From the NCBI GenBank assembly GCA_965207785.1, contig CBDBNO010000012.1, positions 99,293 to 163,292 of the forward strand: a DNA stretch of 64,000 nucleotides, in the 5' to 3' direction. Under the pieces are notes generated by a model, which saw only the letters and a list, made by a program, of their open reading frames with translations, ran no database searches and had not been told where the DNA came from. The position numbers and the translations under genes were made by a program. Shown piece by piece: positions 4,390-22,071 of this stretch; position 1 is the stretch's first letter; every line of letters starts with the position of its first letter. This stretch comes from Alphaproteobacteria bacterium. Its GTDB lineage: Bacteria > Pseudomonadota > Alphaproteobacteria > SP197.

Positions 4390-4423
4390 GGTGTCACGCT
4401 GCCCGCTCTCCGGGCAGCCTCCC

Positions 4424-5299
4424 TCAGTCCCTCATTGCAGCCAGCATGGTCGTTCCCAGGCTGGCCGGTGAGTCGGCGATGTGGAATCCCGCACGCTTCA
4501 TGGCCTCGACCTTGTCGGCGGCACCGCCCTTGCCGCCGGAGATGATGGCCCCGGCATGGCCCATACGGCGTCCGGGAGGAGCCGTCATGCCGGCAATGAA
4601 CCCGGTCACCGGCTTGCGGCGTTTCTCGCGCGCCAGGAAGTCGGCTGCCTCTTCCTCCGCCGACCCGCCGATTTCGCCGATCATGATGATACCTTCGGTT
4701 TCGTCGTCACCGAGAAACATCTCGAGACAGTCAATGAAGTTCGTGCCGTTGACCGGATCGCCACCGATACCGATGCAGGTCGTCTGGCCCAGGCCTGCCA
4801 TGGTGGTCTGGTGGACACCCTCATAGGTGAGCGTGCCCGAACGCGACACGATGCCGATCCTGCCCCGCTTGTGGATGTGTCCGGGCATGATGCCGATCTT
4901 GCATTCCCCGGGGGTGATGACGCCCGGACAGTTGGGGCCGATGAGACGGGACGACGAACCGGCAAGGACACGACGCGCCCTCACCATGTCGAGCACCGGA
5001 ATGCCCTCCGTGATGGCAACGATGAGGGGCACGCCGGCATGGGCGGCCTCGAGGATGGCATCGGCGGCGAAGGGAGGCGGGACGTAGATCACCGAAGCGT
5101 TCGCTCCTGTCGCCGCGACACAGTCTGCCACGGTGTCAAACACCGGACGATCCAGATGGCGTGACCCACCTCTTCCCGGGGTGACGCCACCGACGACGGT
5201 GGTGCCGTAGGCGATAGACTGTTCCGAATGGAACGTTGCCGTCTTGCCGGTGAATCCCTGGACGAGAACCCTGGTCGTGCGATCGACAAGAACGGCCAT
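4424..5299 (-). CDS. sucD: succinyl-CoA synthetase alpha subunit
   Basis: Likely start at [15 protein letters not shown] (ATG 5299 or 5302, overlapping the sucC stop); RLIGPNCPG and GRRMGHAGA phospho-His motif. Confidence 0.96.
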
Positions 5300-6468
5300 C
5301 ATCCGCCTCCGCCGATAGCCGCCACGGCCCTGGCCGCCGCATCGCCGAGATCGTCGGCCGGGATGATCGCCATGCCCGACTGCTGGAGTATCGCCTTTCC
5401 CTGGTCGACGTTGGTTCCCTCGAGGCGGACGATGACCGGCACCTCGAGATCGAGTTCGCGCGCCGCGTCGACCACGCCTTGCGCAATCACGTCGCAACGC
5501 ATGATGCCGCCGAAGATGTTGACGAGAATGGCGCGAACGTTGGCGTCCGAGACGATAACCCTGAACGCTGCCGCCACCTGATCTCTCGTGGCACCACCCC
5601 CGACATCAAGGAAATTGGCCGGCTCGCCGCCGGCGAGCTTGCAGATATCCATGGTCGCCATGGCAAGGCCGGCGCCGTTCACCATGCAGCCGATGGTGCC
5701 GTCGAGCTTGACATAGTTGAGGCCGATGGCATTGGCTTCCCGCTCAGCCGGGTCTTCCTGGTCGGGATCACGCATGGCGACGAGATCGGGGTGCCGGAAA
5801 AGAGCGTTGTCGTCGATGTTGACCTTGCAATCGAGAACGACGAGGTCGTTCGAGGCCGTGACAACGAGGGGATTGATCTCCAGGAGGCTGGCATCCAATT
5901 CCTGGAACGTCTCCGCCATTGACCCGAGAAGGGCGGACGCCTGCTTCGCGGCATCGCCGGCGAGACCCAGGGCAGCGGCAAGCCGGCGGCCATGAAAGGG
6001 CTGGAGTCCGCTGGCGGGATCAATGGCCAGGGTGACAATCCGTTCAGGCGTTTTCGCGGCGACCTCCTCGATGTCCATGCCGCCGTCGAGCGAGGCGATG
6101 ATGGCCATGGAGGCCGTGGCGCGGTCCACGAGAAGGGCAAGGTAGAGTTCGGAGGCGATCGAGAGTCCTTCCTCGATGTAGACGAGGTTGACCGGATTGC
6201 CATCGGGACCCGTCTGGTGGGTGACCAGGCGGCTGCCGATCATGGCGTGGGCGGCCTCTCTCACCTCGTCAAGGCTGTGGCAGACACGGATTCCGCCAGC
6301 CTTTCCCCGGCCACCGGCGTGCACCTGGGCCTTGACCACCCACACATTCCCGCCGAGTTCGCGCGCGGCGGCAACCGCGTCGTCCGCACTCGCGGCAATC
6401 TGGCCGCGGGGAACGGGAACGCCCCTGGCGGACAACAGTGCCTTGGCCTGGTACTCGTGTAGATTCAC
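5299..6468 (-). CDS. sucC: succinyl-CoA synthetase beta subunit
   Basis: [48 protein letters not shown]. Confidence 0.97.
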
Positions 6469-6549
6469 GTCACTATCCGGTTCATGGACCGTCCGGTCTC
6501 ACTCTACCCACCACCCGAAAAATGACAACCGCCGTCACCGGCGAGACGC

Positions 6550-8204
<1,655 letters not shown>

Positions 8205-8350: not shown

Positions 8351-9328
8351 GTGACATTGAATGCAACGATTGCTTCAGGCGCCACCATCGTGCTCGACGG
8401 CGCGACAGGCACGGAGATCGCACGCCTGGGCGGCCGGATGAACGGCGCGGCGTGGTGTGCGGAGGCGAACAGGACGCACCCCGACATCGTGCGCACGGTC
8501 CACGAGGAGTACATCCGCGCCGGAGCCGACGTGATCACGGCCAACACCTTCGCGACCAGCCGTCATGTCCTCGCCGGCGCAGGCCTGGACCAGGAGACCG
8601 TGGCGATCAACCGGCGTGCGGTCGAACTGGCTTGCGAGGCACGCGTCAACGCGGCGGCCGGTCGGCCGGTCTGGGTGGCGGGTTCCATCTCGAACATGGT
8701 TGCCTGGATCGAGGGTACGGTAAGCCCCGATCCCCGCTACCTGCCCACTCGTGACGAAGAGGCCGCCAACTACCGCGAGATGGCTGACATCTTTGCCGAA
8801 GCGGGCGCCGATATCCTGCTTCTGGAGATGATGTCGGACATCGATCGCGCCAGCCTGTGTCTTGAGGCAGCGCTGGCGACAGGCTTGCCGGTGTGGGTCG
8901 GCGTCAGCTGCAGCCGCTTGCCGGACGGCTCCATGATTGGCTGGGACATAGCTCGCGAAGAGCACGGCCGGCTGGCAGACGATCACGAGCCCAGAGTTCC
9001 GCTGCCGCTGTCGGAGATTGTCGCCGGACTGACGGCGCAAGGCGGCGATGTCTACGGAATCATGCACAGTTCGATTGACGCAACAGGGCCCGGCCTCGAG
9101 GTTCTGCGTGGACTCTGGAGCGGCCCGATCATGGCCTATCCCGAAACGCTGCTCGCCGATCCGACAAGCAGCGGAAGCACCGCGACGGTGAATCCCTTAG
9201 AATTCGCGGACGCCTGTCGTAGCTGGGTCGACGCTGGAGTCCAGATCATCGGCGGTTGTTGCGGCACGACCATCGAGCACATTCACGCCCTGGTCGCCGC
9301 CCTGGAGGCGCCCGGAGAGGCCGCCTGA
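8351..9328 (+). CDS. homocysteine S-methyltransferase family protein
   Basis: VLDGATGTE, VHEEYIRAGADVITANTF, IIGGCCGT. GTG 8351 follows GGGAGG (ORF track start is 8324). Confidence 0.88.
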   Translation: MTLNATIASGATIVLDGATGTEIARLGGRMNGAAWCAEANRTHPDIVRTVHEEYIRAGADVITANTFATSRHVLAGAGLDQETVAINRRAVELACEARVNAAAGRPVWVAGSISNMVAWIEGTVSPDPRYLPTRDEEAANYREMADIFAEAGADILLLEMMSDIDRASLCLEAALATGLPVWVGVSCSRLPDGSMIGWDIAREEHGRLADDHEPRVPLPLSEIVAGLTAQGGDVYGIMHSSIDATGPGLEVLRGLWSGPIMAYPETLLADPTSSGSTATVNPLEFADACRSWVDAGVQIIGGCCGTTIEHIHALVAALEAPGEAA

Positions 9329-9563
9329 TCGAAAGGCAGGAAGTCAAAGGCACGGCGACCGCTCGCAATGTGCTACCGGATCACCCCCGCCTTCGCGGTA
9401 AACCGCCGACTTTGGTCACTTTGTCACACCATAATGCGCAACGGTGCGATGGCCGCAGTCTCGATCCGCTGGCTTGCGCGCAAGGACGCGAAGGCGCCGC
9501 AACGATACGCCGCCATCCCCGGACCCTGCCTGATCCACGGCTGGGCATGAGGGCAAGCGCGCC

Positions 9564-10424
9564 ATGACGCTCGAGATCACCCCCATCGACGCCTCTCTTG
9601 GCGCGACAGTGAGCGGCGTGCGGCTGGACTCGCTCGACGACGAGACCTTCGCGGCCATCGAGGCGGCATGGCACACCCACGCCGTACTGGTCTTCCCCGG
9701 CCAGCATCTCTGCGAAGAGGCGCAGGTCGCCTTCAGCGAACGCTTCGGCCCGCTGGAACGCAAGGTTTTCAAGATCCACTCCCTGGACAACCCGGCGACC
9801 ATCCACCTCTCCAACGTCAAGAAGGATGGCACACTCTGGCCTGCAGGCAGCGAAACCGGGTTGCTGCTCGAGGGCAACAACTACTGGCACACCGACAGTT
9901 CCTTCAAGCGCATTCCGGCCAAGGGCTCGGCTCTGACCGCAAGGATCGTGCCCGAGACGGGCGGCGATACCGCCTTTGCCGACATGCGCGCGGCCTGGGA
10001 TGCCCTCGAGCCCGCCATGCAGGACTGGCTTGCCGACAAGATCGCCGTGCACAGCTACGCCTACAGCCAGGGCAGGGTCGGCGGCATGACCGGAGTCAGC
10101 GAGGACGAGTGGGAAGCGCTGCCGCCCGTGAAACACCCGGTGATCCGCCTCCATCCGGCGACGGGACGGCGCAGCCTCTACATTGGCCGCCATGCGAGCC
10201 ACATCGTGGGCGAGGACGAACGGGAGAGCCGCCGCCTGCTGGAGCGACTCTGCAAGGACGCCTGCCGGCCGCCCCGCGTCTTCACTCACCGCTGGACCGT
10301 GGGCGACCTGGTCCTATGGGACAACCGTTGCGTACTTCACCGCGGCCTCGGCTACCCCTCCAACCAGCCACGACGCATGATCCGCACCACCATCGCCGGT
10401 GACGGCGAAGATACCGATGAATGA
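9564..10424 (+). CDS. TauD/TfdA family Fe(II)/2-oxoglutarate dioxygenase
   Basis: WHTDSS (HxD), GGDTAFADM, HPVIRLHPATGR, WDNRCVLHR. Confidence 0.92.
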   Translation: MTLEITPIDASLGATVSGVRLDSLDDETFAAIEAAWHTHAVLVFPGQHLCEEAQVAFSERFGPLERKVFKIHSLDNPATIHLSNVKKDGTLWPAGSETGLLLEGNNYWHTDSSFKRIPAKGSALTARIVPETGGDTAFADMRAAWDALEPAMQDWLADKIAVHSYAYSQGRVGGMTGVSEDEWEALPPVKHPVIRLHPATGRRSLYIGRHASHIVGEDERESRRLLERLCKDACRPPRVFTHRWTVGDLVLWDNRCVLHRGLGYPSNQPRRMIRTTIAGDGEDTDE

Positions 10425-10511
10425 GTCCCGCGCGTGGGCCCTCCGCTGGCTGATCGCGCGGACACCTTCCGACAGGCGAGGCAACCTGGTTCCGCCGCGT
10501 GTCGCTACGCT

Positions 10512-12326
10512 TCACGTCCTCCGTTCGACCTTCACGGTCACCACGTCCGCGCCATAGTACTTTCTGTGGTGAACCGAAGATGCGTAGTGTCTGAGCAGCC
10601 GGAACGACAGTTCGCGATCGTCGTGCACTTCCGCTTCCTCGCTCATGTAAGCGAGTCGATCCTCGATGTTCTGCTCGTCCTCGGAGACGGTGAACAGGTC
10701 CATTGCGACGATATCGTCCTGTGAGCGGACCAGGACGATGAGTCGGGCACTTGTCTCGCCGCCGTCGTTCTCCGAAGGCAGCAGACTCAGCAACGACTCC
10801 TCGCCGGCTGCACGCAATCGATTGGCCGACTCTTCGCCCCATCCGATTTCGGCCGCGAATTCCTGGAGAAACGCGTCGATTCTCGGCTGCGACGATGTCC
10901 CGAGCGTCACCTCCAGTCTTCTGCTGCGCGGGCTGGTCAGTTCGAGGAGCGTCGTCAGGGCGATCATGACAACAATACCGGCGGTCGGGCCGTTTCCGAG
11001 GATCGACATCCAGACGCTGTCCGGGCGCATTGCGAACACGTTCAGGCTCTCCACGCCCAGCCCCACCGATAGCGACATCGCGACAATGAGCGTGTTTTGC
11101 TGATCGAGCCCTTCCCTGAAAACCATGCGCATGCCCTCGACGAGCAACATCCCCATCACCATCAGCAACAGCGACGCCACGACGGCGCTCGGAGCAGCGA
11201 GCAACAGTGCGGTGACCTTCGGGAAGAACGCCACCAGGATGAGGACGGCGCCGATCCAGTAGCCGATGCCGCGAAACGCGATTCCCGTCAGATTGATCAG
11301 GGCAATGGTCGACGGCGAGTAAGCGACCGTCGGAGGCGTGCCGGCCAACCCCGAGAGGAGCCCTCCCACACCGCTTGCGTTGACCGTACCCTGCACGACC
11401 CTGAAGTCGATGGCTCGCGATCTGCGAAGCGACACCTGCTGGATGACCACGCCATCGCCGCTGGTCTTCACGGCAACGACAAGCGTCACGATCACGAACG
11501 TCGGCAAGAGCGTCCAGAACTCCGTTCCAAGTGTCAGGTCAACGCCCTGCCATGCTCCGAAGTCCGGCAACTGGAACCAGGGTTCCCGACTCAGGAAATC
11601 GAGGTCGTAGAGGCCGAAGACTGCTGCGACGATGCAACCCGACAGGATACCGATGAGTGGAGCCCACAGTCGGAGAATGCCCGTACCCTTCAGGGAAACC
11701 ATAATCGCGGCACCCAGCGTCGCCGCTGCGACGAGCGGGCTCGCAATCGAGGCCGTTCCCTCGGGTACATCTCCCAACCGGTCGACCGCGACCGTGATCA
11801 CCGAAATGGCGATCAGCATGAGAGAGGTGCCGCAGACGACAGGCGTGATGATTCTCCTCAGGACCGGCAGCCAGGCAGCGAAGGCGAACTGGGCGAGGGA
11901 CGAGACAATGACAAGGCTGGCCAGCGTCGACCATCCGCCAGCATTGATGGCCACGACCGAAATGGCGACAAAATGCGGTCCGGCACCACACAGCAGAAGG
12001 TGGCCGGCGCCAAATCGTCCGAGACGGTGCGCCTGCAAGGCGGTCACGGCACCGCCAATGACGAGTGCCGCACAGATCGCCCACGAGAGGTACGCCTGAC
12101 CTTCGTCAGAGGCCCTGACCACCATGGTGACCATCACCACCGTGTTGATCACGGCGAGGATGGCCGCCTGTACGGTAACGCCCAGCCCGACCTGCGCCGA
12201 GCAAGGTTCGTCGGGTTCATTGCGAATGTGCTTGTTGAGGGTGTTCACGACGATCGAGGGACGACCGCGCAGGCGTCCCTGCAATCGTGACGTGTCCTGG
12301 CCGAGCGGTGTCTTTCGCCTGGACAT
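10512..12326 (-). CDS. NCS2 (xanthine/uracil permease) family transporter with a C-terminal degenerate RsbW/HATPase-like domain
   Basis: Multi-TM region with LRRIITPVVCG and an NCS2-like layout, then a ~140-aa soluble C-terminal domain. Confidence 0.8.
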   Translation of the reverse strand: MSRRKTPLGQDTSRLQGRLRGRPSIVVNTLNKHIRNEPDEPCSAQVGLGVTVQAAILAVINTVVMVTMVVRASDEGQAYLSWAICAALVIGGAVTALQAHRLGRFGAGHLLLCGAGPHFVAISVVAINAGGWSTLASLVIVSSLAQFAFAAWLPVLRRIITPVVCGTSLMLIAISVITVAVDRLGDVPEGTASIASPLVAAATLGAAIMVSLKGTGILRLWAPLIGILSGCIVAAVFGLYDLDFLSREPWFQLPDFGAWQGVDLTLGTEFWTLLPTFVIVTLVVAVKTSGDGVVIQQVSLRRSRAIDFRVVQGTVNASGVGGLLSGLAGTPPTVAYSPSTIALINLTGIAFRGIGYWIGAVLILVAFFPKVTALLLAAPSAVVASLLLMVMGMLLVEGMRMVFREGLDQQNTLIVAMSLSVGLGVESLNVFAMRPDSVWMSILGNGPTAGIVVMIALTTLLELTSPRSRRLEVTLGTSSQPRIDAFLQEFAAEIGWGEESANRLRAAGEESLLSLLPSENDGGETSARLIVLVRSQDDIVAMDLFTVSEDEQNIEDRLAYMSEEAEVHDDRELSFRLLRHYASSVHHRKYYGADVVTVKVERRT

Positions 12327-12517
12327 CGCCCTGATCGGCGCGCTACCGCAGTCCCACCGCCACCGTCCACGCGCCCAGGCAGCAGGCAGATCATCGGTCG
12401 GTCAGACGAGTCGTGCTCAAGCACGGGCCAGGAACCGCAGCCATGGCTCTGCTTTGCGGATCAAATCGCGTGGCTCAGATGTCCGTCGAACTGCACATGG
12501 GTCGATTGGGAGTGATG

Positions 12518-12805
12518 TCACACCCCCTCGACGACGATCACTTCGGCGTCAGCCGACCGCTGCCGGATTGTCCTCACCTCAACGTATTCGGGTGAGTTGA
12601 GCCACGCTCGTGCCGCGGCGCCATCGTCGAATTGCACCACCACGAGTCGACCTGGGGACCAGCCGCCCTCAATCACTTCGACGCTGCCACCACGCACCAG
12701 GTACCGACCTCCGTGCGCATCGATCGTTGCGGCGATCCGTTTGCGAAACTCCGAGAACGTGTCTTCATCCGTTATCGTGTCATTGACGATCACGTAAGCC
12801 GCCAT
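12518..12805 (-). CDS. DUF1330 family protein
   Basis: MAAYVIV...HGGRYLVRGG...IEGGWSPGRLVVVQF...AWLNSPEY...VIVVEG. Confidence 0.9.
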   Translation of the reverse strand: MAAYVIVNDTITDEDTFSEFRKRIAATIDAHGGRYLVRGGSVEVIEGGWSPGRLVVVQFDDGAAARAWLNSPEYVEVRTIRQRSADAEVIVVEGV

Positions 12806-12943
12806 GGAAGTTCCTCCCAACTGTCGGGTTTGATCCTTGGGTAACGTGCCGTTTCCGGACAGAACGGCACGGGGTTCGTCCGCGTCCGGACCTGCACGTT
12901 GTGTAGCACATCACGCGTATCGATTCGAACGGTCGCTGTCCGC

Positions 12944-13960
12944 TCAGGCCAGCGATGTGAGGCGCATGCCGGAATTGTTCGCCCGAGTGCACACGACTCG
13001 TCCCGGAATGGCTCTCCCGTCACTCAGCTTGCATCGCAGGCCTGCGGTCAACTCGTCATCCGAAATCCTGATCCTGTCAAAGAAACCGAAGACCGTTGCG
13101 CCCGTCGACGAGAGCCCGCAACCCTGGATTCCGGAGGTCGCGTCGAAGGCGAGCCTGACGGATTTCAGCGGCTCGATGTCGGGGCGTGTCCAGTGCCGCC
13201 TCTTCCAGCCGACATCCTGAAGGGCGCTGACACAGGAACCGAATGTCTCGAGATCGAGCTCCCGCAACGCCGGCAAGAGCCGCATCAGGATAATGTGGGA
13301 CGCCGACTGCGCTTCCTCAAGCGGGATCGGCGTGTTGGCAAGCATGAAGTCAAGCTCGTCCTGGCCCGACAGGCCCCGTTGACTGCTCGGAATGAACAGC
13401 ACAATCCCCCAATCCTTCGGGAAGTCGCTATGCATGAGAAGCGGGGGCTGACCTGCCCTGGTCGCAAAGCGCGACGGTGCGAACGACCCTTTCTGCATGC
13501 GTACGGAATGTCCCCCGTCGAGCAGAATCCCCCCACACCGAAAGGCGTTGATTCCGATCCCCGACGTGCCTCCCCGGGTGGACATGGCCGCGAGCTCTCG
13601 TGGCGAATGGTTCAATCCATGCCGATGATCCAACGCGCTCAGGACCGCGAGCCTGGTCTGAGTGCCCGATCCCAGCCCCTGGTGCGGAGGAATCATCTGA
13701 CGGATCAGGATTTCAATACCCGGTTCGACGTCGAGAATCTCGCCAGCCGCGGCAGCTTCGGCCAAGACCAGCTCCCGCTCGGCGCGGCTGCCTCCCCGAA
13801 CCACGGTTCGCCCGTGCGGACCGAACTCGAGCAACACACCGGGGTACTGGACGGCGAGGCCGAGACTGCCGTCGATACGGCCAATCTCGCCATTCATGTC
13901 AATCAGTGTGAAATGCAGCCGGGACGGCGTGCTAATCCGGTGCGTCAAGGTCGAGCACAT
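12944..13960 (-). CDS. beta-ribofuranosylaminobenzene 5'-phosphate (beta-RFAP) synthase-like protein, GHMP kinase superfamily
   Basis: TPSRLHFTLIDMNGEIGRIDGSLGLA, GHMP motif PPHQGLGSGTQ, RGGTSGIG, GGILLDGGH, GLSSTGAT. Confidence 0.85.
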   Translation of the reverse strand: MCSTLTHRISTPSRLHFTLIDMNGEIGRIDGSLGLAVQYPGVLLEFGPHGRTVVRGGSRAERELVLAEAAAAGEILDVEPGIEILIRQMIPPHQGLGSGTQTRLAVLSALDHRHGLNHSPRELAAMSTRGGTSGIGINAFRCGGILLDGGHSVRMQKGSFAPSRFATRAGQPPLLMHSDFPKDWGIVLFIPSSQRGLSGQDELDFMLANTPIPLEEAQSASHIILMRLLPALRELDLETFGSCVSALQDVGWKRRHWTRPDIEPLKSVRLAFDATSGIQGCGLSSTGATVFGFFDRIRISDDELTAGLRCKLSDGRAIPGRVVCTRANNSGMRLTSLA

Positions 13961-15254
13961 CCGAGTAGCCTTTCAGGTCCAGATAGCCATGCCCCGACAG
14001 GCAGAAGACGATGACCTGCTTGCGCCCGGTTCTCGAAGCCTCCCTTGCCGCATCGATCGCACCCAGCACCGCATGAGCGCTTTCGGGCGCAGCAAGAACA
14101 CCTTCGGTCTTCAGGAACAGGCGTCCCGCGTCGAACACATCGCGCTGGCCATAGGTCCTGGTATCGACCACATCGTTCTTGACCAGCGCGGAGAGAACGG
14201 GCGTCTTGCCGTGATACCGCAATCCACCCGAGTGAACGGGTGGCGGCACGAACCGATGGCCGAGCGTGTACATCAGAATCCGGGGTGTCAGTTCGGAGAA
14301 GTCGGCCCAGTCGTATCGGTACTCACCCCGACTCAGCGTCGGTATCGAGTCCGGCTCGATGGCCCGAAACTCGATGGCGCTTCCGCCGATCTTCTCGCGC
14401 ACGAACGGTGCGATGAATCCCGTGAAGTTGCTGCCGCCGCCGACGCAACCGATCATCAGACTGGGCGACCGGTCGATCTGTTCGAGCTGGAGTTTCGTTT
14501 CCAGACCGATGATCGATTGATGGAGCACGGCGTAGTAGGACATGCACCCCAACGCGAGCCGCCTCCCGCGATCCTCCTTGACGAACTCGATCGCCTCGCT
14601 CATGCCGATGCCAAGACTGCCCGAGTTCTCAGGATCGTCCCGCAGGATCTGCCGTCCGGTGTTCGTCAGCTCGCTGGGGGAGGAGTACACGTCGGCGCCC
14701 GCCATGCGCATCAGGTAGCGGCGATAGGGCTTCTCGTCATAGCTCTTGCGGATCATGAACACGCAGCAACCGAGCCCCAGTGTCTCGCACGCCATCGCCA
14801 GAGCCGCTCCCCATTGACCGGCTCCCGTGTCGGTGACCATGGTGTGAATCCGGGAGTGTTCCTCGCGCGTGGCGTAGTACGCCTGCACCAATGCGGTGTT
14901 GAACTTGTGACTTCCCGCGGGATTCAGGTCTTCACGCTTGTAGTAGATCTCGGCGGGCGTCCCGAGATACGTCTCCAGTGCGCGGGCTCTCACCAGGGGG
15001 GATGGTCGGTATCGACGGTACACATCCGATATGAACTGCGGGATTTCGATCCACGCATCGGTGCCGTACTCGCCCTCCAGCAGCTCAATTCGAAGACACT
15101 CCCGCGGCCACAGCCAGTCGTAGTCCTCGATTTCCACGCCTCGATCCTCGATCGGATGCATCGGCCTCGGCACATCGAACGGCAGTTCCGCGACGACGTT
15201 GTTCCAGCTCCGTGGAAGCTGCGACTCCGGCAGAACGATCTTGTTGTCGACCAT
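13932..15254 (-). CDS. TrpB2-type (TrpB-like) PLP-dependent enzyme
   Basis: PAGSHKFNTA (PLP Lys), TDTGAGQWGAAL, CVGGGSNF, HSGGLRYHG, APESAHA, LSGHGYLDL. Confidence 0.9.
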   Translation of the reverse strand: MVDNKIVLPESQLPRSWNNVVAELPFDVPRPMHPIEDRGVEIEDYDWLWPRECLRIELLEGEYGTDAWIEIPQFISDVYRRYRPSPLVRARALETYLGTPAEIYYKREDLNPAGSHKFNTALVQAYYATREEHSRIHTMVTDTGAGQWGAALAMACETLGLGCCVFMIRKSYDEKPYRRYLMRMAGADVYSSPSELTNTGRQILRDDPENSGSLGIGMSEAIEFVKEDRGRRLALGCMSYYAVLHQSIIGLETKLQLEQIDRSPSLMIGCVGGGSNFTGFIAPFVREKIGGSAIEFRAIEPDSIPTLSRGEYRYDWADFSELTPRILMYTLGHRFVPPPVHSGGLRYHGKTPVLSALVKNDVVDTRTYGQRDVFDAGRLFLKTEGVLAAPESAHAVLGAIDAAREASRTGRKQVIVFCLSGHGYLDLKGYSDVLDLDAPD

Positions 15255-15774
15255 CGTCACGCCATCAATTTCCGGGCACTCGGCCGCTTCAATGCAGCGG
15301 CTCGGAAGATTCTGGAGCCCGGTGGCGCATGGGGTGTTCCAGTGAGGAGCGGCGTTCCGGCAAGCCTATGCGAAGAAGGGGACGATGAGAAGGCCGTCCC
15401 GGTCGCAGCTTTCAGCCGACGAGCGCGGGTCAACGTCAGGTGCCAGGACGAGGTCCGCCCTGCACCGAGCCTGCCGACAGGGATTGCTGGTCGAGTGTGC
15501 TCGACGCAGTGCGCGCGAGGCCGACGGTCCGTGTCCGTTCGACTCGTTCGGGAGTCGCGTTCGAGCGTTGCACCTCGGCATGCGTCATGCCAGCCGTTGG
15601 CCCGCTGGATGCGCCGCCGGGCCGCGCCGTCGCCGAACTCATCCGTGCATGTCGCCTCAACATCGCCGAGCGAAAGGTGCTGACAGCATTCGTGCAGTAA
15701 CGCACTCCAGGGGCCGGACTTCAGTCTTCGAGTGCAGCCAGGCATCTTGGAACCACCCAACCGTCATAGGAGCA

Positions 15775-17427
15775 TCAGGAACAGGTTGCCACCCCTGGAC
15801 CGCGAGGCTTGCGGCGATCATCCCGATGGTCCTCCAGGATCATCGCCGAACCCTTCTCCCCGATCATGATCGCCGGAGCGTTGGTGTTGCCCGAGACCGG
15901 CGTCGGCATGATCGAGGCATCCGCCACACGCAGACCCTCAAGGCCCCGTACGCGCAACCGCTCGTCCACCACGGCTTGTGAATCCCTGCCCATCGTGCAG
16001 GTGCCGATAGGATGGAAGACCGTGGAACCCGCCCGCCGGCAGAAGTCCAGAATCTCGTCGTAGGTCCGGACCTCGGCGCCGGGGGAGAGTTCATGCGCGC
16101 GGTAGCGGGCGAGAGACGGCGCATCGCCGAGGCGCCGCGCGATGCGGATTCCCTCGACGAGCGTGTCCCGGTCCACCTGTTCGCTCAGGAAGTTCGGGCG
16201 GATGACAGGCGGCGCTGTCGGATCAGCCCGCCTGATGTGGATCGAGCCCCGGCTCTCCGGACGAAGCTGCCAGACCGAGAGCGTCATGCCCGGTTCTCTC
16301 TCGAGGGTCCCCTTCTTGCCGGGCACATGGCTTGCGTGGGCGAAGTCAAACTGCAGGTCGGGCGTCTCGAGTTCGGGACGCGTGCGCACGAAGGCGTGCG
16401 CGATGCCCGCAGTGCAGGTCAGGGCGCCCCGGCACATGGCCCCGTACTGCAGCACCGCCAACGCGAAGCGCGCCCCGCGCGTGTCCTCGTTGAGGGTCCG
16501 CGAATGCCGGACCCGCCAGGCGACCTTGCTCAGGTAGTGGTCCCGGTAGTTCTCGCCCACTCCCGGCAGTTCGTGCACGATCGGGATATCGTGCTCGCGC
16601 AGCAGATCCGGCTGTCCGATTCCGGACAGCTCCAGGAGCTGCGGCGACTGCACAGCCCCGGCGGCGAGGACCACTTCCCGTCGCGCACGCACTTCCGTCG
16701 CCGTGCCCCCCTTCGCCCTTGCCGAACCGTACCGTACGCCGACCGCACGATCATTCTCGATGAGCACCCGGTGCGTGAGTGCCCGCGTGCGTATCGTGAG
16801 GTTCGACCGCCGCCGCGCCGGAGTCAGGAACGCCCGGGCAGTGCTATGCCGCCGGCCGCTCCGCTGCGTCACCTGGTAGTAGCCGAAACCCTCCTGGGAT
16901 GCTCCGTTGTAGTCCGGGTTCTTCGCGTAGCCGAGCTCTGTTCCGGCTTCGATGAATGCATCGAGCAGGGGGTGCCTCTCGATCACGTCCGCCACGTTCA
17001 ACTCGCCGGCACCGCCCCGAAAATCGTCGGCTCCGCGCTCGAAGCGCTCCGAGCGCCTGAAGTGGGGCAGCACATCTTCGTAGGACCAGCCCTGGTTGCC
17101 GAACTGGGCCCACATGTCGTAGTCGCGGGCCTGGCCGCGCACGTACAGCATGCCGTTGATCGAACTCGAGCCGCCCAGCACCTTACCGCGTGGAATCGGG
17201 AGACGCCGGTGGCCGGTGCCCACCTCGGGTTCCGTGTCGAAGCACCAGTTGACGCTTGGGCGGTCGACCAGCTTCCAGAAACCGGCCGGCACATGGATGA
17301 GGGGATGCCAGTCGCGGCCGCCGGCCTCGAGCAGCAGCACGCTGTTGCCCGGATCCGCACTCAGCCGGTTGGCCAGCACGCAACCAGCGGAGCCGGCGCC
17401 CACCACAATGTAGTCGAATTCTTCCAT
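15775..17427 (-). CDS. GMC oxidoreductase (choline dehydrogenase-like)
   Basis: FDYIVVGAGSAGCVLANRLS, RGKVLGGSSSINGMLYVRG, HPIGTCTMG, SGNTNAPAIMIGEK. Confidence 0.93.
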   Translation of the reverse strand: MEEFDYIVVGAGSAGCVLANRLSADPGNSVLLLEAGGRDWHPLIHVPAGFWKLVDRPSVNWCFDTEPEVGTGHRRLPIPRGKVLGGSSSINGMLYVRGQARDYDMWAQFGNQGWSYEDVLPHFRRSERFERGADDFRGGAGELNVADVIERHPLLDAFIEAGTELGYAKNPDYNGASQEGFGYYQVTQRSGRRHSTARAFLTPARRRSNLTIRTRALTHRVLIENDRAVGVRYGSARAKGGTATEVRARREVVLAAGAVQSPQLLELSGIGQPDLLREHDIPIVHELPGVGENYRDHYLSKVAWRVRHSRTLNEDTRGARFALAVLQYGAMCRGALTCTAGIAHAFVRTRPELETPDLQFDFAHASHVPGKKGTLEREPGMTLSVWQLRPESRGSIHIRRADPTAPPVIRPNFLSEQVDRDTLVEGIRIARRLGDAPSLARYRAHELSPGAEVRTYDEILDFCRRAGSTVFHPIGTCTMGRDSQAVVDERLRVRGLEGLRVADASIMPTPVSGNTNAPAIMIGEKGSAMILEDHRDDRRKPRGPGVATCS

Positions 17428-17637
17428 GCAGCCGGTTGCCTTGTCGAAATCGCAAGATACGAAGGGTCATCGGGACACGCTAGCCACCACCTTCGAGGCC
17501 GGGTCGAAGCGGACGGCGATCGCCCGAGACTTCACGCCCGCCGGACGTCCAGATCGAAGACATGCCGGGTGGCCCGGATCTGGACAGGCGGGGGTGGAAG
17601 GGCCAATCTTGGGAGTGCCGGATCGGGAGGCAGCCCC

Positions 17638-17895
17638 TTGACGGATCTTGTGCAGTATCTGGAAGTGCAGCGATTGCTTGATGAAGTGGAGGATGTCGCC
17701 GACGAGCTCGCGGCAAACGAGCGGGACATGGTCGACTGGCTGCGGCGCTCCTGCGAGGATCCGTCACACAACGAGGCTCAGGCCGTGCGCCTCCTCGAGA
17801 CAATCCTGCGCAATGTCCGGATCCGCCGCGCCTACGACACCGACGCCAGCGAACAGACGCGACGCAAGATCGACCTCGGCCACAAGGTTCACTGA
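17638..17895 (+). CDS. small hypothetical helical protein (~85 aa)
   Basis: TTG start after GGGAGG; MTDLVQYLEVQRLLDEVEDVADELAANERDMVDWLRR...; fills the gap between the GMC gene and moaD; hidden at the 3' end of shadow ORF 16012..17895. Confidence 0.65.
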   Translation: MTDLVQYLEVQRLLDEVEDVADELAANERDMVDWLRRSCEDPSHNEAQAVRLLETILRNVRIRRAYDTDASEQTRRKIDLGHKVH

Positions 17896-17901
17896 CCGGG
17901 A

Positions 17902-18150
17902 TCAGCCACCCTTGAGCGGCGGCATGAGCGCCAGATTGTCGCCGTCATCGAGTTCCCGTGTGCCACGCTCGGCCGTCGGGACAGCCATGCCGTTCAACGT
18001 CACAAGATAGCTGCCATCGGGAAATCCCAGGCGCTTCATGACGTCTGTGATGGTTGTACCCCGCGGCACATCGATCTCGGCGCGGTTCTTCGCGGGCCCG
18101 GGCGGCAGGTACTTGCCGAGCAGGCCCGCGGTTCTCACGAGAATCTTCAT
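17902..18150 (-). CDS. MoaD/ThiS family sulfur carrier
   Basis: Ubiquitin-like size, C-terminal ALMPPLKGG; ATG 18150 overlaps the stop of the upstream gene. Confidence 0.88.
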   Translation of the reverse strand: MKILVRTAGLLGKYLPPGPAKNRAEIDVPRGTTITDVMKRLGFPDGSYLVTLNGMAVPTAERGTRELDDGDNLALMPPLKGG

Positions 18151-19406
18151 GCAGCGCGGCGTGACGCGTCCTGGGCCGTGGCAAGATAGGCGGACATGAT
18201 CTGGTGGGGATCGTCCATCAGGACATCTTTCCACTTTCCAAGCGGCGTCTTCGTCTGGATGAGACCGCGCAGCACGCCGACGTGCTGTGTGAGGCCCAGC
18301 GCCAGGCAACCTACGAGAACATCGTCACGGAAATTCAGCCTCAGGTACCTGTAGGCCCGGGCATCCACGGCGGTGGCGACGTCGCCGCCCTCGACGCCGT
18401 CCCACAGACCGTAGGACGTGGAGATGAGGCCCAGCGTGTTGAGGGTATTCATGACCAGGCTGCCACGGTAGGCTGTTTTCTTGCCTGCCATGTTCATCGC
18501 TGCAATGCGCCCGTGCTCGCTTGCCGTGGGCTGGATGGCATGGACATCATGACCACCGGTCATGAAGTCGAATCCCGCCGCAACGTCTCCGGCGGCGTAG
18601 ATGCCGGGAACACTGGTTTCCAGGTGTTCGTCGACCACGACACCGATGTCGGTCTCGATGCCGCTGCCTTCCAGGAACCCGATGTTCGACGCAACACCCG
18701 TCGCGCACACGACAAGGTCCGCATTCAGCGGCGCCTTGCCCTCGAGATCGAGAGTGAGCGAGCCATCGCTGTTCCGGGAGACACCGTTCACCCGGGTCGA
18801 CACGTGAACGTCGACACCCTTCTCGCGGCACCATGCGGCAATCATGTCACCGCCTGTCCTGTCCATCATGCGGGCGACCATGCGATCAGCCATCTCGATC
18901 ACGGTGAGATTGACCTGACGGGCGACCAGGGCCTCGAGAATGATGCATCCGATGAAACCCGCACCCATCAGCACGACATTGTCGCCGGGTTTCGTGTGTT
19001 CCATGATCCGGCGGGCGTCAGCAAGGGTCCAGCAGGACATCACCTTCTCCAGGTCCATGCCCGGAATGGGCGGCCGGATGGGGCTCGCTCCAGTGGCAAG
19101 AAGCAGCCTGTCGAAAGCCAGACTGCCACCGCTGGCAAGGGAAAGCGATTTCGCTGCCGCATCGATGGCCGTCACGGTGTCGTGTTTCACGGCAACGCCG
19201 AGACCATCGTAGTGACCTTCCGAGTGGCGCAGGCACGTCCCTTCCTCGTCGATGTCCTCAGCCAGGAGATAGGGAATTGCCATCCTGGAGTACGGCGGTT
19301 CCGGTTCGTCCGACAACACCGTGACATGGCCGCCGTGCCCCATGCGGGCCAGGGTTTCGGACGCGATCACACCGGCGGGACCGGCGCCAACGATGACATG
19401 GTTCAT
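18147..19406 (-). CDS. FAD/NAD(P)-dependent oxidoreductase (AorC-like subunit)
   Basis: HVIVGAGPAG, PPYSRMAIPYLL, LLATGA, GAGFIG, IYAAGD; in an operon with AOR. Confidence 0.88.
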   Translation of the reverse strand: MNHVIVGAGPAGVIASETLARMGHGGHVTVLSDEPEPPYSRMAIPYLLAEDIDEEGTCLRHSEGHYDGLGVAVKHDTVTAIDAAAKSLSLASGGSLAFDRLLLATGASPIRPPIPGMDLEKVMSCWTLADARRIMEHTKPGDNVVLMGAGFIGCIILEALVARQVNLTVIEMADRMVARMMDRTGGDMIAAWCREKGVDVHVSTRVNGVSRNSDGSLTLDLEGKAPLNADLVVCATGVASNIGFLEGSGIETDIGVVVDEHLETSVPGIYAAGDVAAGFDFMTGGHDVHAIQPTASEHGRIAAMNMAGKKTAYRGSLVMNTLNTLGLISTSYGLWDGVEGGDVATAVDARAYRYLRLNFRDDVLVGCLALGLTQHVGVLRGLIQTKTPLGKWKDVLMDDPHQIMSAYLATAQDASRRAA

Positions 19407-19500
19407 GGTTGTCCCCTCCAAGAGGAATGGGATTCCGGCCATGCGACCGGAATCCCTGATACACACATCCGGCGGTTACCGCCCCTTGACGTTGACCGGG

Positions 19501-21321
19501 TCAAAGACCAAGGCGCGACAGGGTCTCGTTGGTCGGCTGGCCCGCCTCCGTCCAGCCGCGCAGGCTGTAGTACTCCGGCAGCATTTTCGAAAGTTCGCTG
19601 ACCTTGCCCTTGGCGCTTCCCGAAGGCGCCGGCTCGTTCAGCATGCGCGGTGGCAGGGTGTCATCGGCAGCCGTCAACCCGGCTGCCATGTTGAACATGC
19701 GCTCGAGAGTCCATGTCCTTTCACCCGATTCGATGCACCTCTCGAGAGTCCATTCCCCGGGGAGTGCCGCGTCAAGCTGGGCGACGAAATCTTCCGGTCC
19801 CCAGCCAGCGGTGGTGAAGAGGCAGAGACCGGTGGAATCGATCATCGAGACCATGTCCTGGCTCTCCTTGACCGGGGCCGCCTTGCCGTTGCCGGAAATG
19901 TCCTCCATGTCGGGGCCGAAGACATCGTGCTTGAGATGACAGGCGCCGCGATTGGAGGTCGCGTAGCCCAGGCCCATGCCCTGCAGGGCCCTACTGTCGT
20001 AACCGGCGAACTCCTGGCCCTTCACGCCCATGAAGAGTTCCGGATGACCGTACTTCTCGCACAGCCGCTTGGAGCCCAGGGCCAGTTCCTTGCCGAAACC
20101 ATCGCCCTTGCCGGTCTTCTCCGCCATGACAGCCAGTCCCTCGGAACTGCCGAAGCTGAGATCGATGCCGTCGGTGTCGTCCTTGGTCAGGACTCCCATC
20201 TCGAAGAGCTCCATCGCCGCCGCTAGGGTCACCCCGAACGAGATCGGGTCCATGCCGTGCTCGTTCATCATGTAGTTGGCGAACGTCAGGGAATCGAGGT
20301 CGTCGACTCCGACAACCGGGCCGAAGGCATAGGCCGTCTCGTACTCCAGGCCACCCGAAGCATGCCGGTATTCCGGCCGATTGACGATGGTGAAGTGCTC
20401 CGGGTCGATATGAGCGATCCGGCCGCACGCGATCGTGCACCCGAAACAGGCCTTGTTGGTGATGAGGTTGGTGTGGCCATTGGCATTCGGCGCGGTCGTT
20501 GCCCCGGGGTTGACGTTGTCGATGCCTTCGAACTGGACCTCGCGGAAGTTCCTGGTGGGCAGCCCGCCCCACTCCTGCATCATGTCGATCATGGGATGGG
20601 TGCCGCCCTCGGTGAGCTCCTCGCGGCCATCGCTGGCTGCGAGCTTGGCGTGGGTGTCCTTCACCACTTCCATGAACTTCGCCGGATCGTCCACCGTGAC
20701 ACCCCTGGTGCCATAGGCCGCCACCGCCTTGAGATTCTTTGATCCCATGACGGCGCCGACGCCGCAGCGACCGGCGGCTCGGTGAAGGTCATTGACGACA
20801 CAGGCATAGAGAACGCCGTTCTCCCCGGCCTCTCCGATCGAGGCGACCTTGAGCTGGGGGTTCTGGTGACGGGACTTGATCCACTCTTCGGTATGCCAGA
20901 CGCCGGTTCCCCAGATCTCGTCCGCCGGCAGGATCTCGACGTTGTCGTCATCGATATGCAGATAGACCGGTTTGTCGGCCCTGCCCTCGATGAGCAGAAG
21001 GTCGTAGCCGGCATACTTCAGAAACGCGCCGAACTTGCCGCCGGAGTTGGAATCGCCGATGGCGCCGGTGAGCGGGCTCTTGCAGAGCACCGCATAGCGG
21101 CCACTCGTCGAGGCCATGGTTCCGTTGAGCGGTCCGGTGGCGAAGATGAGGACATTGTCCGGCCCCATCGGATCGCACTTGGGATCCACGTTTTCGTAGA
21201 GGTACTTGGTTCCAAGTCCGCGCTCGCCGATATAGGCGTTGGCCCATTCCATGTTCAATGGTTCGGCTTCAGCGGTTCCCTTGGTGAGATTGACACGCAG
21301 GATCTGGCCTTGCCAGGACAT
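19501..21321 (-). CDS. aldehyde:ferredoxin oxidoreductase family catalytic subunit (W/Mo-bis-MPT)
   Basis: KSPLTGAIGDSNSGG, AAGRCGVGAVMGSKNLKA, CFGCTIACG, GLEYET, RGACHL, DDTLP, YYSLRGW. Confidence 0.95.
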   Translation of the reverse strand: MSWQGQILRVNLTKGTAEAEPLNMEWANAYIGERGLGTKYLYENVDPKCDPMGPDNVLIFATGPLNGTMASTSGRYAVLCKSPLTGAIGDSNSGGKFGAFLKYAGYDLLLIEGRADKPVYLHIDDDNVEILPADEIWGTGVWHTEEWIKSRHQNPQLKVASIGEAGENGVLYACVVNDLHRAAGRCGVGAVMGSKNLKAVAAYGTRGVTVDDPAKFMEVVKDTHAKLAASDGREELTEGGTHPMIDMMQEWGGLPTRNFREVQFEGIDNVNPGATTAPNANGHTNLITNKACFGCTIACGRIAHIDPEHFTIVNRPEYRHASGGLEYETAYAFGPVVGVDDLDSLTFANYMMNEHGMDPISFGVTLAAAMELFEMGVLTKDDTDGIDLSFGSSEGLAVMAEKTGKGDGFGKELALGSKRLCEKYGHPELFMGVKGQEFAGYDSRALQGMGLGYATSNRGACHLKHDVFGPDMEDISGNGKAAPVKESQDMVSMIDSTGLCLFTTAGWGPEDFVAQLDAALPGEWTLERCIESGERTWTLERMFNMAAGLTAADDTLPPRMLNEPAPSGSAKGKVSELSKMLPEYYSLRGWTEAGQPTNETLSRLGL

Positions 21322-21345
21322 CGTCGTTTCTCCCCGGTGCTGTCG

Positions 21346-21825
21346 TCAGGCCTTGGCCGACTGGTTGGTGTCCACGTGCCCGGCCCATCGCCGCATGCGA
21401 TCAAGACCGGTCCATGACGAATCCACGTAGACGATGGCGTCGGTGGGACATGCCTCGGCGCACTTGGGATCGCCGTGGCACAAGTCGCACTTGATGACCT
21501 TGCCCGTGTCGGGATTGTAGTTCACGGTCCCGAAGGGGCAGGCGATCGTGCACACCTTGCACCCCACACAGACATCATCCTTGACCTCGACCGCTCCCGT
21601 CACCGGGTTGCGGACCAGCGCTTCCACCGGACAGGCATGCACGCACCATGCCTCCGCGCACTGTGTGCAGGTATAGGGAACGGCGCGCTTGCCGTGTTCG
21701 AATTCAAAGATCTTGATCCTGGAACGGGCCGGGTTGAACGAGCCTTCATGCTCGAACGAACAGGCCATTTCGCATTGTAGACAGCTCGTGCACTTGTCAG
21801 GATCAATCAGAAGCGATTTCTGCAT
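21346..21825 (-). CDS. 4Fe-4S polyferredoxin subunit (AorA-like)
   Basis: Four Cys clusters: CTSCLQCEMAC, CTQC...CVHACP, CVGCKVCTIACPFG, KCDLC...CAEACP. Confidence 0.92.
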   Translation of the reverse strand: MQKSLLIDPDKCTSCLQCEMACSFEHEGSFNPARSRIKIFEFEHGKRAVPYTCTQCAEAWCVHACPVEALVRNPVTGAVEVKDDVCVGCKVCTIACPFGTVNYNPDTGKVIKCDLCHGDPKCAEACPTDAIVYVDSSWTGLDRMRRWAGHVDTNQSAKA

Positions 21826-22071
21826 ACCCCAGCACCTCTCCTCAGCCGTGCCTTCGCCGCACCCAATGTGACAGAGGCGGGGAGAGCGGCGGTCTCCCTC
21901 GCATCCGTCAACCATACTAGACACGTTGCCAGCCGATGGGTAGTGCCCCGACCGCGAACTATCGTCGGATTTGGTCGCGATGCCGACGTTATGGAAGATG
22001 TTCGACGCGGATCGGTTCGTTGTACCGTGCCGTGAAGGCGTGGGGAGCGATCGAGCGCCGGATCAGCGGGC

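Follow-up and report, generated by a model that had tools for sequence, protein, structure and literature searches.

A recurrent gene pair of TrpB2 and a beta-RFAP-synthase-family enzyme, and its possible role in the conversion of aromatic carboxylic acids

This study concerns a pair of overlapping genes in 64,000 nucleotides of DNA from Alphaproteobacteria bacterium (GenBank assembly GCA_965207785.1, contig CBDBNO010000012.1, positions 99,293 to 163,292), a stretch that is referred to below as the window. One gene encodes a TrpB2-type, pyridoxal phosphate (PLP)-dependent beta-replacement enzyme (TrpB2), and the other an enzyme of the beta-RFAP synthase family (RFAPS). The adjacency of the two is more than chance, and the pathway that they serve is not methanopterin synthesis. 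Judged by its sequences, the group to which this RFAPS belongs is a third, distinct clade of its family, which has a TrpB-family partner and appears to be spreading horizontally. We propose, with a confidence slightly short of even, that an imported aromatic or heteroaromatic carboxylate is C-ribosylated with phosphoribosyl pyrophosphate (PRPP) under loss of CO2, and that the same pathway includes the addition of an alanyl unit by TrpB2.

To our knowledge, enzymes that join ribose to an aromatic ring by a C-C bond are rare, and we know of two substrate classes for them: p-aminobenzoate (pABA) or 4-hydroxybenzoate, used in methanopterin synthesis, and pyrazole dicarboxylates, used for formycin and pyrazofurin. 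The members of the third clade are found in metagenome-assembled genomes (MAGs) of Pseudomonadota, Chloroflexota, Latescibacterota and Gemmatimonadota, and in Streptomyces gene clusters. TrpB2 enzymes are TrpA-independent tryptophan synthases that scavenge indole, and their role has been debated for two decades. Among open-access papers and preprints, none describes an RFAP synthase paired with TrpB or tryptophan synthase; the passages of a 2022 C-nucleoside review that deal with ForT in formycin synthesis contain no TrpB-linked context (PMC8724604).

Layout and recurrence of the gene pair

Both genes lie on the minus strand. TrpB2 occupies positions 13932-15260 (442 aa, with a GTG start; an ATG two codons further inside would place the start at 15254), and RFAPS occupies 12944-13960 (338 aa, with its ATG at 13960). 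The ATG of RFAPS precedes the TrpB2 stop codon TAG (13934-13932), giving an overlap of 29 nt, and the letters AAGG are found 10-13 nt 5' of this ATG. In the direction of transcription, the minus-strand order is a GMC-family oxidoreductase gene, a non-coding stretch of 514 nt, TrpB2, RFAPS, a DUF1330 gene and a gene for an NCS2-family permease. A preliminary description of this DNA had reported the 29-bp overlap, had assigned the two genes to the TrpB2 and beta-RFAP synthase families, and had placed DUF1330 and an atypical NCS2 gene downstream on the same strand; the open reading frame (ORF) coordinates confirm the first point, the scores against NF009057 and TIGR00144 uphold the second, and Pfam matches bear out the third.

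TrpB2 scores 564 bits against NF009057 (TrpB-like; cut-off 366), falls just below the threshold of TIGR01415 (513.4 against 518.85 bits), and matches the S. solfataricus TrpB2 chain 6HUL_B over residues 12-436 at 396 bits. RFAPS matches the beta-RFAP synthase family TIGR00144 at 233 bits (cut-off 113.5) over residues 8-334 of 338. Its best NCBIfam match is the MptG equivalog NF040726, at 268.3 bits, which is under the cut-off of 328.

Relatives of RFAPS were obtained by a pattern scan over one genome per prokaryotic species, with the best 80 of 100 kept; these relatives are not independent of one another, and the locus counts are to be read accordingly. Neighbours at each locus were searched by tblastn with the window proteins (E 1e-5 or better, at least half of the query covered). 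In the window and in 21 of the 80 loci, the gene immediately upstream of RFAPS, in the same orientation, is TrpB2. All 22 fall within a clade of 36 RFAPS rows (22/36), whereas outside this clade the adjacency occurs in 0 of 45 RFAPS loci. Near ordinary TrpB2 genes in 80 metagenome loci (43-51% identity), RFAPS, DUF1330 or the permease was found in none, among the matches listed. The loci with adjacent TrpB2 are labelled Pseudomonadota, Actinomycetota (four Streptomyces and one uncultured) and Acidobacteriota. Of the 14 TrpB2-bearing loci closest to the window, 12 keep the overlap at 29 nt (L020 has 23 nt and L015 about 17 nt), and in the overlap-bearing loci RFAPS is 67-88% identical to the window RFAPS.

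The closest group comprises 26 loci and the window, 27 in all, for which genes were counted by clustering of all ORFs; in loci of high GC content, gene calling relied on Pfam scans of all ORFs. RFAPS and DUF1330 are present in all 27, the NCS2 permease in 24, TrpB2 in 15, an SDR gene in 10 and a GMC gene in 7. These counts bear on the preliminary description in several ways. It had raised conserved pairing as the point to check by gene neighbourhood, and the pairing recurs in at least three named phyla; it had also named an adjacency confined to one genome as part of what would speak against it, and the 21 further loci show otherwise. Its suggestion that the two enzymes may act on one substrate is kept here as a proposal; the absence of TrpB2 from 12 of the 27 close loci speaks against a strict two-enzyme unit. 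DUF1330, which it had taken as a bystander, is the constant partner of RFAPS in this group.

One Pseudomonadales MAG chromosome carries the RFAPS-DUF1330 set twice, at a distance of 14.8 kb: the set at L019 is accompanied by TrpB2, that at L023 by the NCS2 permease. The two RFAPS sequences group as sisters in the tree.

A second context is found in seven actinomycete-type loci (Actinomycetota and Vicinamibacterales), where the pair is followed by other genes. These are a HemN-like radical SAM gene (best NCBIfam: STM4012 family, HemW) and a PfkB kinase gene, each in 6/7 loci, a dTMP-kinase-like gene in 5/7 and a TauD-like gene in 3/7; in the Streptomyces loci, ABC exporter genes and regulators lie near the pair as well. 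The PfkB and P-loop kinases may supply PRPP. Common to both contexts are only TrpB2 and RFAPS, plus a TauD-family dioxygenase in some loci.

Residues and relationships of the two enzymes

ForT and its pyrazofurin counterpart (PDB 6YQQ, 8AP0) are the only solved relatives of RFAPS, which matches ForT 6YQQ with E 3.6e-36 over residues 8-335 at an identity of about one third. In the passages of the ForT study that deal with the active site (PMC9832568), T138, S139, S174 and E211 are named as catalytic or PRPP/carboxylate-site residues, E211A is the sole assayable variant without detectable activity, and S21, L24, I37, K263 and Q266 are the substrate contacts. The first four correspond to T132, S133, S163 and E202 of RFAPS, all kept and invariant or nearly so (alignments A1 and A3). 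The contact positions read H16, L19, S32, R254 and W257 in RFAPS, and contacts S21, K263 and Q266 of the ForT aminopyrazole-dicarboxylate type are thus not kept. RFAPS also has the phosphate motifs RGGTSG and GLGSGTQ. Residues D19 and R26 of M. thermautotrophicus MTH0830 align with D21 and R28, and both are kept; in the passages on this RFAP synthase in PMC6787355, the change R26K raises the Km for pABA tenfold. From these residues, RFAPS probably retains PRPP-dependent decarboxylative C-ribosylation, with an aromatic acid other than pABA as its substrate.

The clade differs from MptG-type enzymes at several positions. For comparison, 36 MptG-type rows were used (14 archaeal and 22 bacterial). 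Position 256 is Glu in all 36 of these and His in 35 of the 36 rows of the RFAPS clade; position 206 is Phe in 36/36 MptG-type rows and Met in 36/36 rows of the clade. Further clade-specific changes are T286 (Phe or Leu in MptG-type rows) and R259. Position 256 falls within the stretch that contains ForT K263 and Q266.

In a maximum-likelihood tree of 81 RFAPS rows, built by a quick search with SH-aLRT as the sole support measure and flagged for long branches, the RFAPS clade of 36 rows has a support of 99. It is composed of the 22 TrpB2-adjacent rows, window included, 12 rows with DUF1330 and NCS2 without TrpB2, and 2 Entotheonella rows. Sister to this clade, with a support of 94, is the archaeal MptG group; methylotroph MptG is more distant. 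A phylogeny had been suggested at the outset as a check, and in it RFAPS sorts with sequences from C-nucleoside-like and uncharacterised contexts, apart from methylotroph MptG.

Several observations on individual relatives may be recorded here. In Candidatus Entotheonella sp. TSY1 (L033:8939-16498), RFAPS is flanked by genes for a PEP mutase-family protein, a lysine/ornithine N-monooxygenase (lysine N6-monooxygenase) and two cupin/MetRS-like proteins; we take the N-monooxygenase and cupin/MetRS-like set to be hydrazine-making genes for pyrazole C-nucleosides, and the locus may be a cluster for a pyrazole or other N-N C-nucleoside. In an Acidobacteriota MAG (L054:9968-12052), the RFAPS C-terminus diverges from about residue 245, the GWKRRHW motif is lost and the frame continues to 694 codons, which is probably a frameshift or an assembly error. 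Six loci (L021, L022, L024, L026, L027 and L034) have near-identical RFAPS (branch lengths at most 0.014) under the labels Gemmatimonadota, Latescibacterota and Dehalococcoidia, which may be a binning or labelling fault or a very recent transfer. No fused RFAPS forms were found among relatives of 593-2000 aa at E 1e-30, a result that is weak evidence. A link between Ser32 of RFAPS and TrpB2 adjacency was considered and set aside: of the 22 adjacent rows, 21 have Ser, and of the 14 non-adjacent rows, 11 have Gly, but the pattern is not evidence because there are only four independent contrasts, with a median p of 0.5.

In TrpB2, the PLP-lysine motif is GSHKFN, where many other TrpB2s have GSHKPN, and the glycine-rich motif reads DTGAGQWG in place of the archaeal ETGAGQWG. 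The Asp-for-Glu change was tried as a mark of RFAPS-linked TrpB2 and rejected, as Asp occurs in 88 of the 119 top TrpB2 matches, many of them unlinked. The linked subfamily has its own signature, W49, W51, L56 and W318, and its members are set apart in identity, with one tier at 82-90% and the next at 57-66%, against at most 55% for all other TrpB2s. The sequence of TrpB2, for its part, gives no sign of an altered nucleophile.

The genome that holds the window (4.79 Mb in 13 contigs, with a completeness estimate of 100%) has a single RFAPS copy. Searches of it for Mch (PF02289), Ftr/FhcD (PF01913) and Fae (PF08714) gave no match, while archaeal control genomes were positive; the domain of methylene-tetrahydromethanopterin (H4MPT) dehydrogenase (PF09176) is excluded from the absence evidence, its search having had no working control. 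A full H4MPT pathway with an ordinary MptG, which had been named as the outcome that would speak against a new pathway, is therefore not what this genome holds. The trpA gene, already noted as missing from the window, is found on contig 6, where it adjoins a canonical trpB (631 bits), and TrpB2 is therefore an extra copy. Since Mch, Ftr and Fae are absent, RFAPS is single and trpBA lies elsewhere, the pathway of the pair is not methanopterin synthesis.

The island and its other genes

The pair lies on a segment of about 8.2 kb (9335-17570). In congeners G027, G008, G028, G025 and G019, the sequences that flank it in the window (4001-8071 and 17571-21946) are 1.3-2.3 kb apart, and in congeners G020 and G014 the left flank extends to about 9330 (9334). 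Because the congener flanks lie so near to each other, the segment is read as an insertion carrying exactly six genes, referred to here as the island. In 22 congeners this site lacks the island, and RFAPS is present in 1 of the 33 genomes of the order, that of the window, and in none of the 32 others, which include the 22 congeners. The island proteins are 78-95% identical to those of L008 (labelled Rhodospirillales MAG) and L009 (labelled Paracoccaceae MAG). From these comparisons, we regard the island as horizontally acquired.

Two congeners are worth a separate remark. The empty site of G027 (L092:1341-2315) holds a gene for a 324-aa protein with an HNH endonuclease domain. In G014, a 91% copy of window 9537-11903, covering the dioxygenase and part of the permease, lies on another contig and ends with it, and this genome may therefore hold the island elsewhere; two back-to-back TauD/TfdA-family genes stand beside the partial permease copy (L091:6666-8765, contig C40). 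An RNA library labelled sponge metagenome yielded contigs with 90-95% likeness to each of the five larger island genes, those for the dioxygenase, the permease, RFAPS, TrpB2 and the GMC protein; being contigs, these matches indicate presence in the library, not transcription. Bins 12688-12961 and 15428-15701 have zero depth (X1), gaps that are uninformative in contig data.

The DUF1330 gene (12518-12820, minus strand) matches PF07045 at 106 bits and encodes about 95-100 aa, its likely start being the ATG at codon 6. Its only solved relatives, 2FIU and 3LO3, are both uncharacterised, and no functional study of DUF1330 was found in the open-access literature, as judged by titles and abstracts.

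The atypical NCS2-family permease gene (10512-12326, minus strand) encodes 604 aa, of which residues 52-426 match PF00860 (Xan_ur_permease) at 141 bits (cut-off 27); against the xanthine permease model TIGR03173 it scores 174 bits, under the 414 required. Three island-type permeases were aligned with E. coli UraA, XanQ and UacT. The Glu of the three E. coli proteins is Lys in the island permeases (Arg in one homologue), and their [E/Q]N motif is replaced by PS and a one-residue insertion. From the UraA/XanQ literature, we take these two positions to be nucleobase-binding sites; a basic residue in place of the Glu would suit an anionic substrate. The C-terminal 135 aa or so (window 10512-10925) form a conserved cytoplasmic domain with the motif FRLLRHYASSV.HRKY.G, which all three island-type permeases have and UraA, XanQ and UacT lack; a Pfam search of this domain matched no family.

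Convergent with the permease gene, a gene at 9564-10424 on the plus strand encodes a TfdA/TauD-family Fe(II)/2-oxoglutarate dioxygenase (286 aa; PF02668, 223 bits). Its closest solved structure is the 2,4-D dioxygenase 5BKE (184 bits), followed by an aryloxypropionate dioxygenase at 140 bits, and it scores 153 bits against the TauD taurine dioxygenase equivalog, under the cut-off of 313; it is thus nearer to aryloxyalkanoate dioxygenases than to taurine dioxygenase. The pair also has homologues of this gene nearby in L008, L009 and the actinomycete loci L039, L040 and L060.

On the other side of the pair, the GMC-family FAD oxidoreductase gene (15775-17427, minus strand) encodes a choline-dehydrogenase-like protein of 550 aa with GMC_oxred_N and GMC_oxred_C domains, at 599.5 bits against NF002550 (cut-off 605). 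Between it and TrpB2 is the non-coding stretch (15261-15774, 5' of TrpB2 on the minus strand). An ORF at 15257-15760 (167 aa) in this spacer is read as intergenic because it matches no family and its translation is Arg-rich. The proximal 230 nt or so upstream of TrpB2 are 77% identical to L008 over 249 nt and 74% identical to L009 over 158 nt, while the spacer length varies; this conserved stretch could be a leader or an operator. An Rfam scan of 9000-18500 gave a chance miRNA match alone (E 0.52) and no riboswitch, and promoter and terminator scans over the region were at or below shuffle expectation.

Outside the island, a minus-strand block at 17902-21321, common to the window genome and its congeners, encodes a 606-aa aldehyde:ferredoxin oxidoreductase of the tungsten-enzyme family, a 439-aa pyridine nucleotide-disulphide oxidoreductase and a small ThiS-like protein.

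Proposed pathway, alternatives and known systems

We propose that the pair is part of an acquired six-gene island that would take up and convert an aromatic or heteroaromatic carboxylic acid. The atypical permease would import the acid, and RFAPS, to judge by its conserved catalytic residues, would join it to PRPP at the carboxylate-bearing carbon, with release of CO2 and pyrophosphate, to form an aryl C-ribotide; DUF1330 would act together with RFAPS. TrpB2 would form a PLP-aminoacrylate from serine or phosphoserine and add it to the same electron-rich ring or ribotide, yielding an alanyl product, while the TfdA-like dioxygenase and the GMC oxidase might prepare or trim the aromatic substrate. 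As for the order of steps, TrpB2 could follow RFAPS on a still electron-rich ring, or TrpB2 and the permease could be alternative sources of the RFAPS substrate. TrpB2 would be an ancestral, dispensable branch of the pathway. A route to indole from anthranilate through an ortho C-ribotide was dropped on paper, as ring closure gives a 2-substituted indole and cannot release indole.

Decidedly more speculative is a named product: a C-nucleotide amino acid of a new metabolite class, in which an electron-rich (hetero)aromatic ring is substituted both with a C-linked ribose 5-phosphate and with an alanyl side chain. Marine symbionts would produce it from an acid that they import, in actinomycetes the radical SAM enzyme would modify it further, and the His256 clade would stand for a third substrate class beside pABA and pyrazole dicarboxylates.

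A number of points weigh against the proposed pathway. RFAPS, DUF1330 and NCS2 occur without TrpB2 in 12 of the 27 closest-group loci, and six such genomes (five Latescibacterota and one Chloroflexota chromosome) were searched and have no TrpB2 anywhere, one of them giving a TrpB1-like match only (33% identity); the same query reached E 1e-263 or better in 4/4 genomes having the adjacent gene. It follows that RFAPS can work without TrpB2 and that TrpB2 need not touch the RFAPS substrate. The permease and DUF1330 are absent from the seven actinomycete-type loci, and of the 27 close loci only 3 (window, L008 and L009) have the TfdA-like gene and just 7 have a GMC gene close to the pair. NCS2 proteins count as importers by family precedent only. 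The signature residues of the linked TrpB2 all lie outside the PLP-lysine and TGAGQWG motifs, and the Asp of the latter is widespread, so the linked TrpB2 could be an ordinary indole-using enzyme. Finally, every chemical step of the proposal is inferred.

The strongest rival is suggested by the Entotheonella and Streptomyces contexts. It holds that the product is an endogenous secondary metabolite, a C-nucleoside or a C-ribosylated amino acid akin to formycin and pyrazofurin, for which the permease would serve export or self-protection, and we consider it possible though rather unlikely. Entotheonella is the nearest outgroup inside the RFAPS clade and carries its lysine N6-monooxygenase and cupin/MetRS-like genes by RFAPS; the radical SAM, PfkB, dTMP-kinase-like and TauD-like genes of Actinomycetota and Vicinamibacterales, and the exporters and regulators of Streptomyces, point the same way. 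However, the window island has six genes and no scaffold-building enzymes, the constant set of the closest group is RFAPS, DUF1330 and a permease of an importer family, and no conserved precursor-forming genes lie near the 27 close loci.

We think it unlikely that TrpB2 is an ordinary indole-scavenging tryptophan synthase, merely co-regulated with an aromatic-acid module and sharing no intermediate with it. This would accord with what is known of TrpB2s, with the intact PLP lysine and TGAGQWG and a signature that spares both motifs, and with the RFAPS modules that lack TrpB2. Yet the 29-nt overlap persists where RFAPS has diverged to 67-88% identity, the pairing survives across Pseudomonadota, Actinomycetota and Acidobacteriota while all other neighbours change, the two linked TrpB2 tiers are closer to each other (57-66%) than to the rest (at most 55%), and the genome already has trpBA.

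That RFAPS is a true beta-RFAP synthase, which would use pABA or 4-hydroxybenzoate to supply a methanopterin-like or other pterin cofactor with its aryl-ribitol part, is improbable in spite of its place in TIGR00144, its best match to the MptG equivalog, the archaeal MptG sister group and the kept pABA-region residues D21 and R28. It scores under the equivalog cut-off (268 against 328), Mch, Ftr and Fae are absent from the genome, the Glu of all 36 MptG-type rows is His, and the gene is present in 1/33 genomes of the order. Two genes co-travelling on a mobile segment, adjacent without functional meaning, are very unlikely: although the pair sits on an insertion and island neighbours are often unrelated, order and strand are the same in 22 loci, the overlap is conserved, and both controls were empty (0/45 other RFAPS loci, and 0/80 ordinary TrpB2 loci among the matches listed).

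Identification of the substrate would provide a concrete non-tryptophan context for TrpB2 enzymes and an additional C-glycoside-forming biocatalyst, and a metabolite that members of host-associated marine communities exchange would probably come to light. With small soluble enzymes and an island of six genes, the question is directly testable.

Among known systems, MptG (e.g., MTH0830) shares with RFAPS the TIGR00144 family, its length, the phosphate motifs and the D19/R26 equivalents, and the chemistry of RFAPS is probably the same, with PRPP and an aromatic acid giving a C-ribotide, CO2 and pyrophosphate. In contrast to MptG, RFAPS falls under the equivalog cut-off, has His for an invariant Glu and three further clade changes, has other neighbours, and resides in a genome with no H4MPT-dependent enzymes. 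ForT/pyrazofurin synthase aligns with RFAPS over the full length, has T138, S139, S174 and E211 in common with it, and sets a precedent for a heteroaromatic dicarboxylate substrate; unlike in ForT, the contacts S21, I37, K263 and Q266 are changed, and gene scans of the window and island found no hydrazine-forming or purine-like tailoring genes. The island permease aligns with E. coli UraA, XanQ and UacT (NCS2/NAT) along the membrane core at 20-23% identity, but differs from them in Lys or Arg for Glu, in PS and an insertion for [E/Q]N, and in its extra C-terminal domain.

The stand-alone TrpB2 tryptophan synthases (S. solfataricus 6HUL, 4QYS and 6HTE) match the window TrpB2 over the full length, with the PLP-lysine and glycine-rich motifs intact, whereas the window protein has Asp in the TGAGQWG motif, GSHKFN, a signature of its own, and RFAPS in the place of trpA as its partner. 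RFAPS differs from TrpA in having a GHMP-kinase fold, not a TIM barrel, and in that it would build a C-C bond rather than break one. Indole-3-glycerol phosphate is chemically akin to an aryl C-ribotide, and the pair may be likened in its logic to the TrpA-TrpB operon, in that translation of a TrpB-type enzyme would be coupled to that of an enzyme acting on an aryl-C-linked sugar phosphate.

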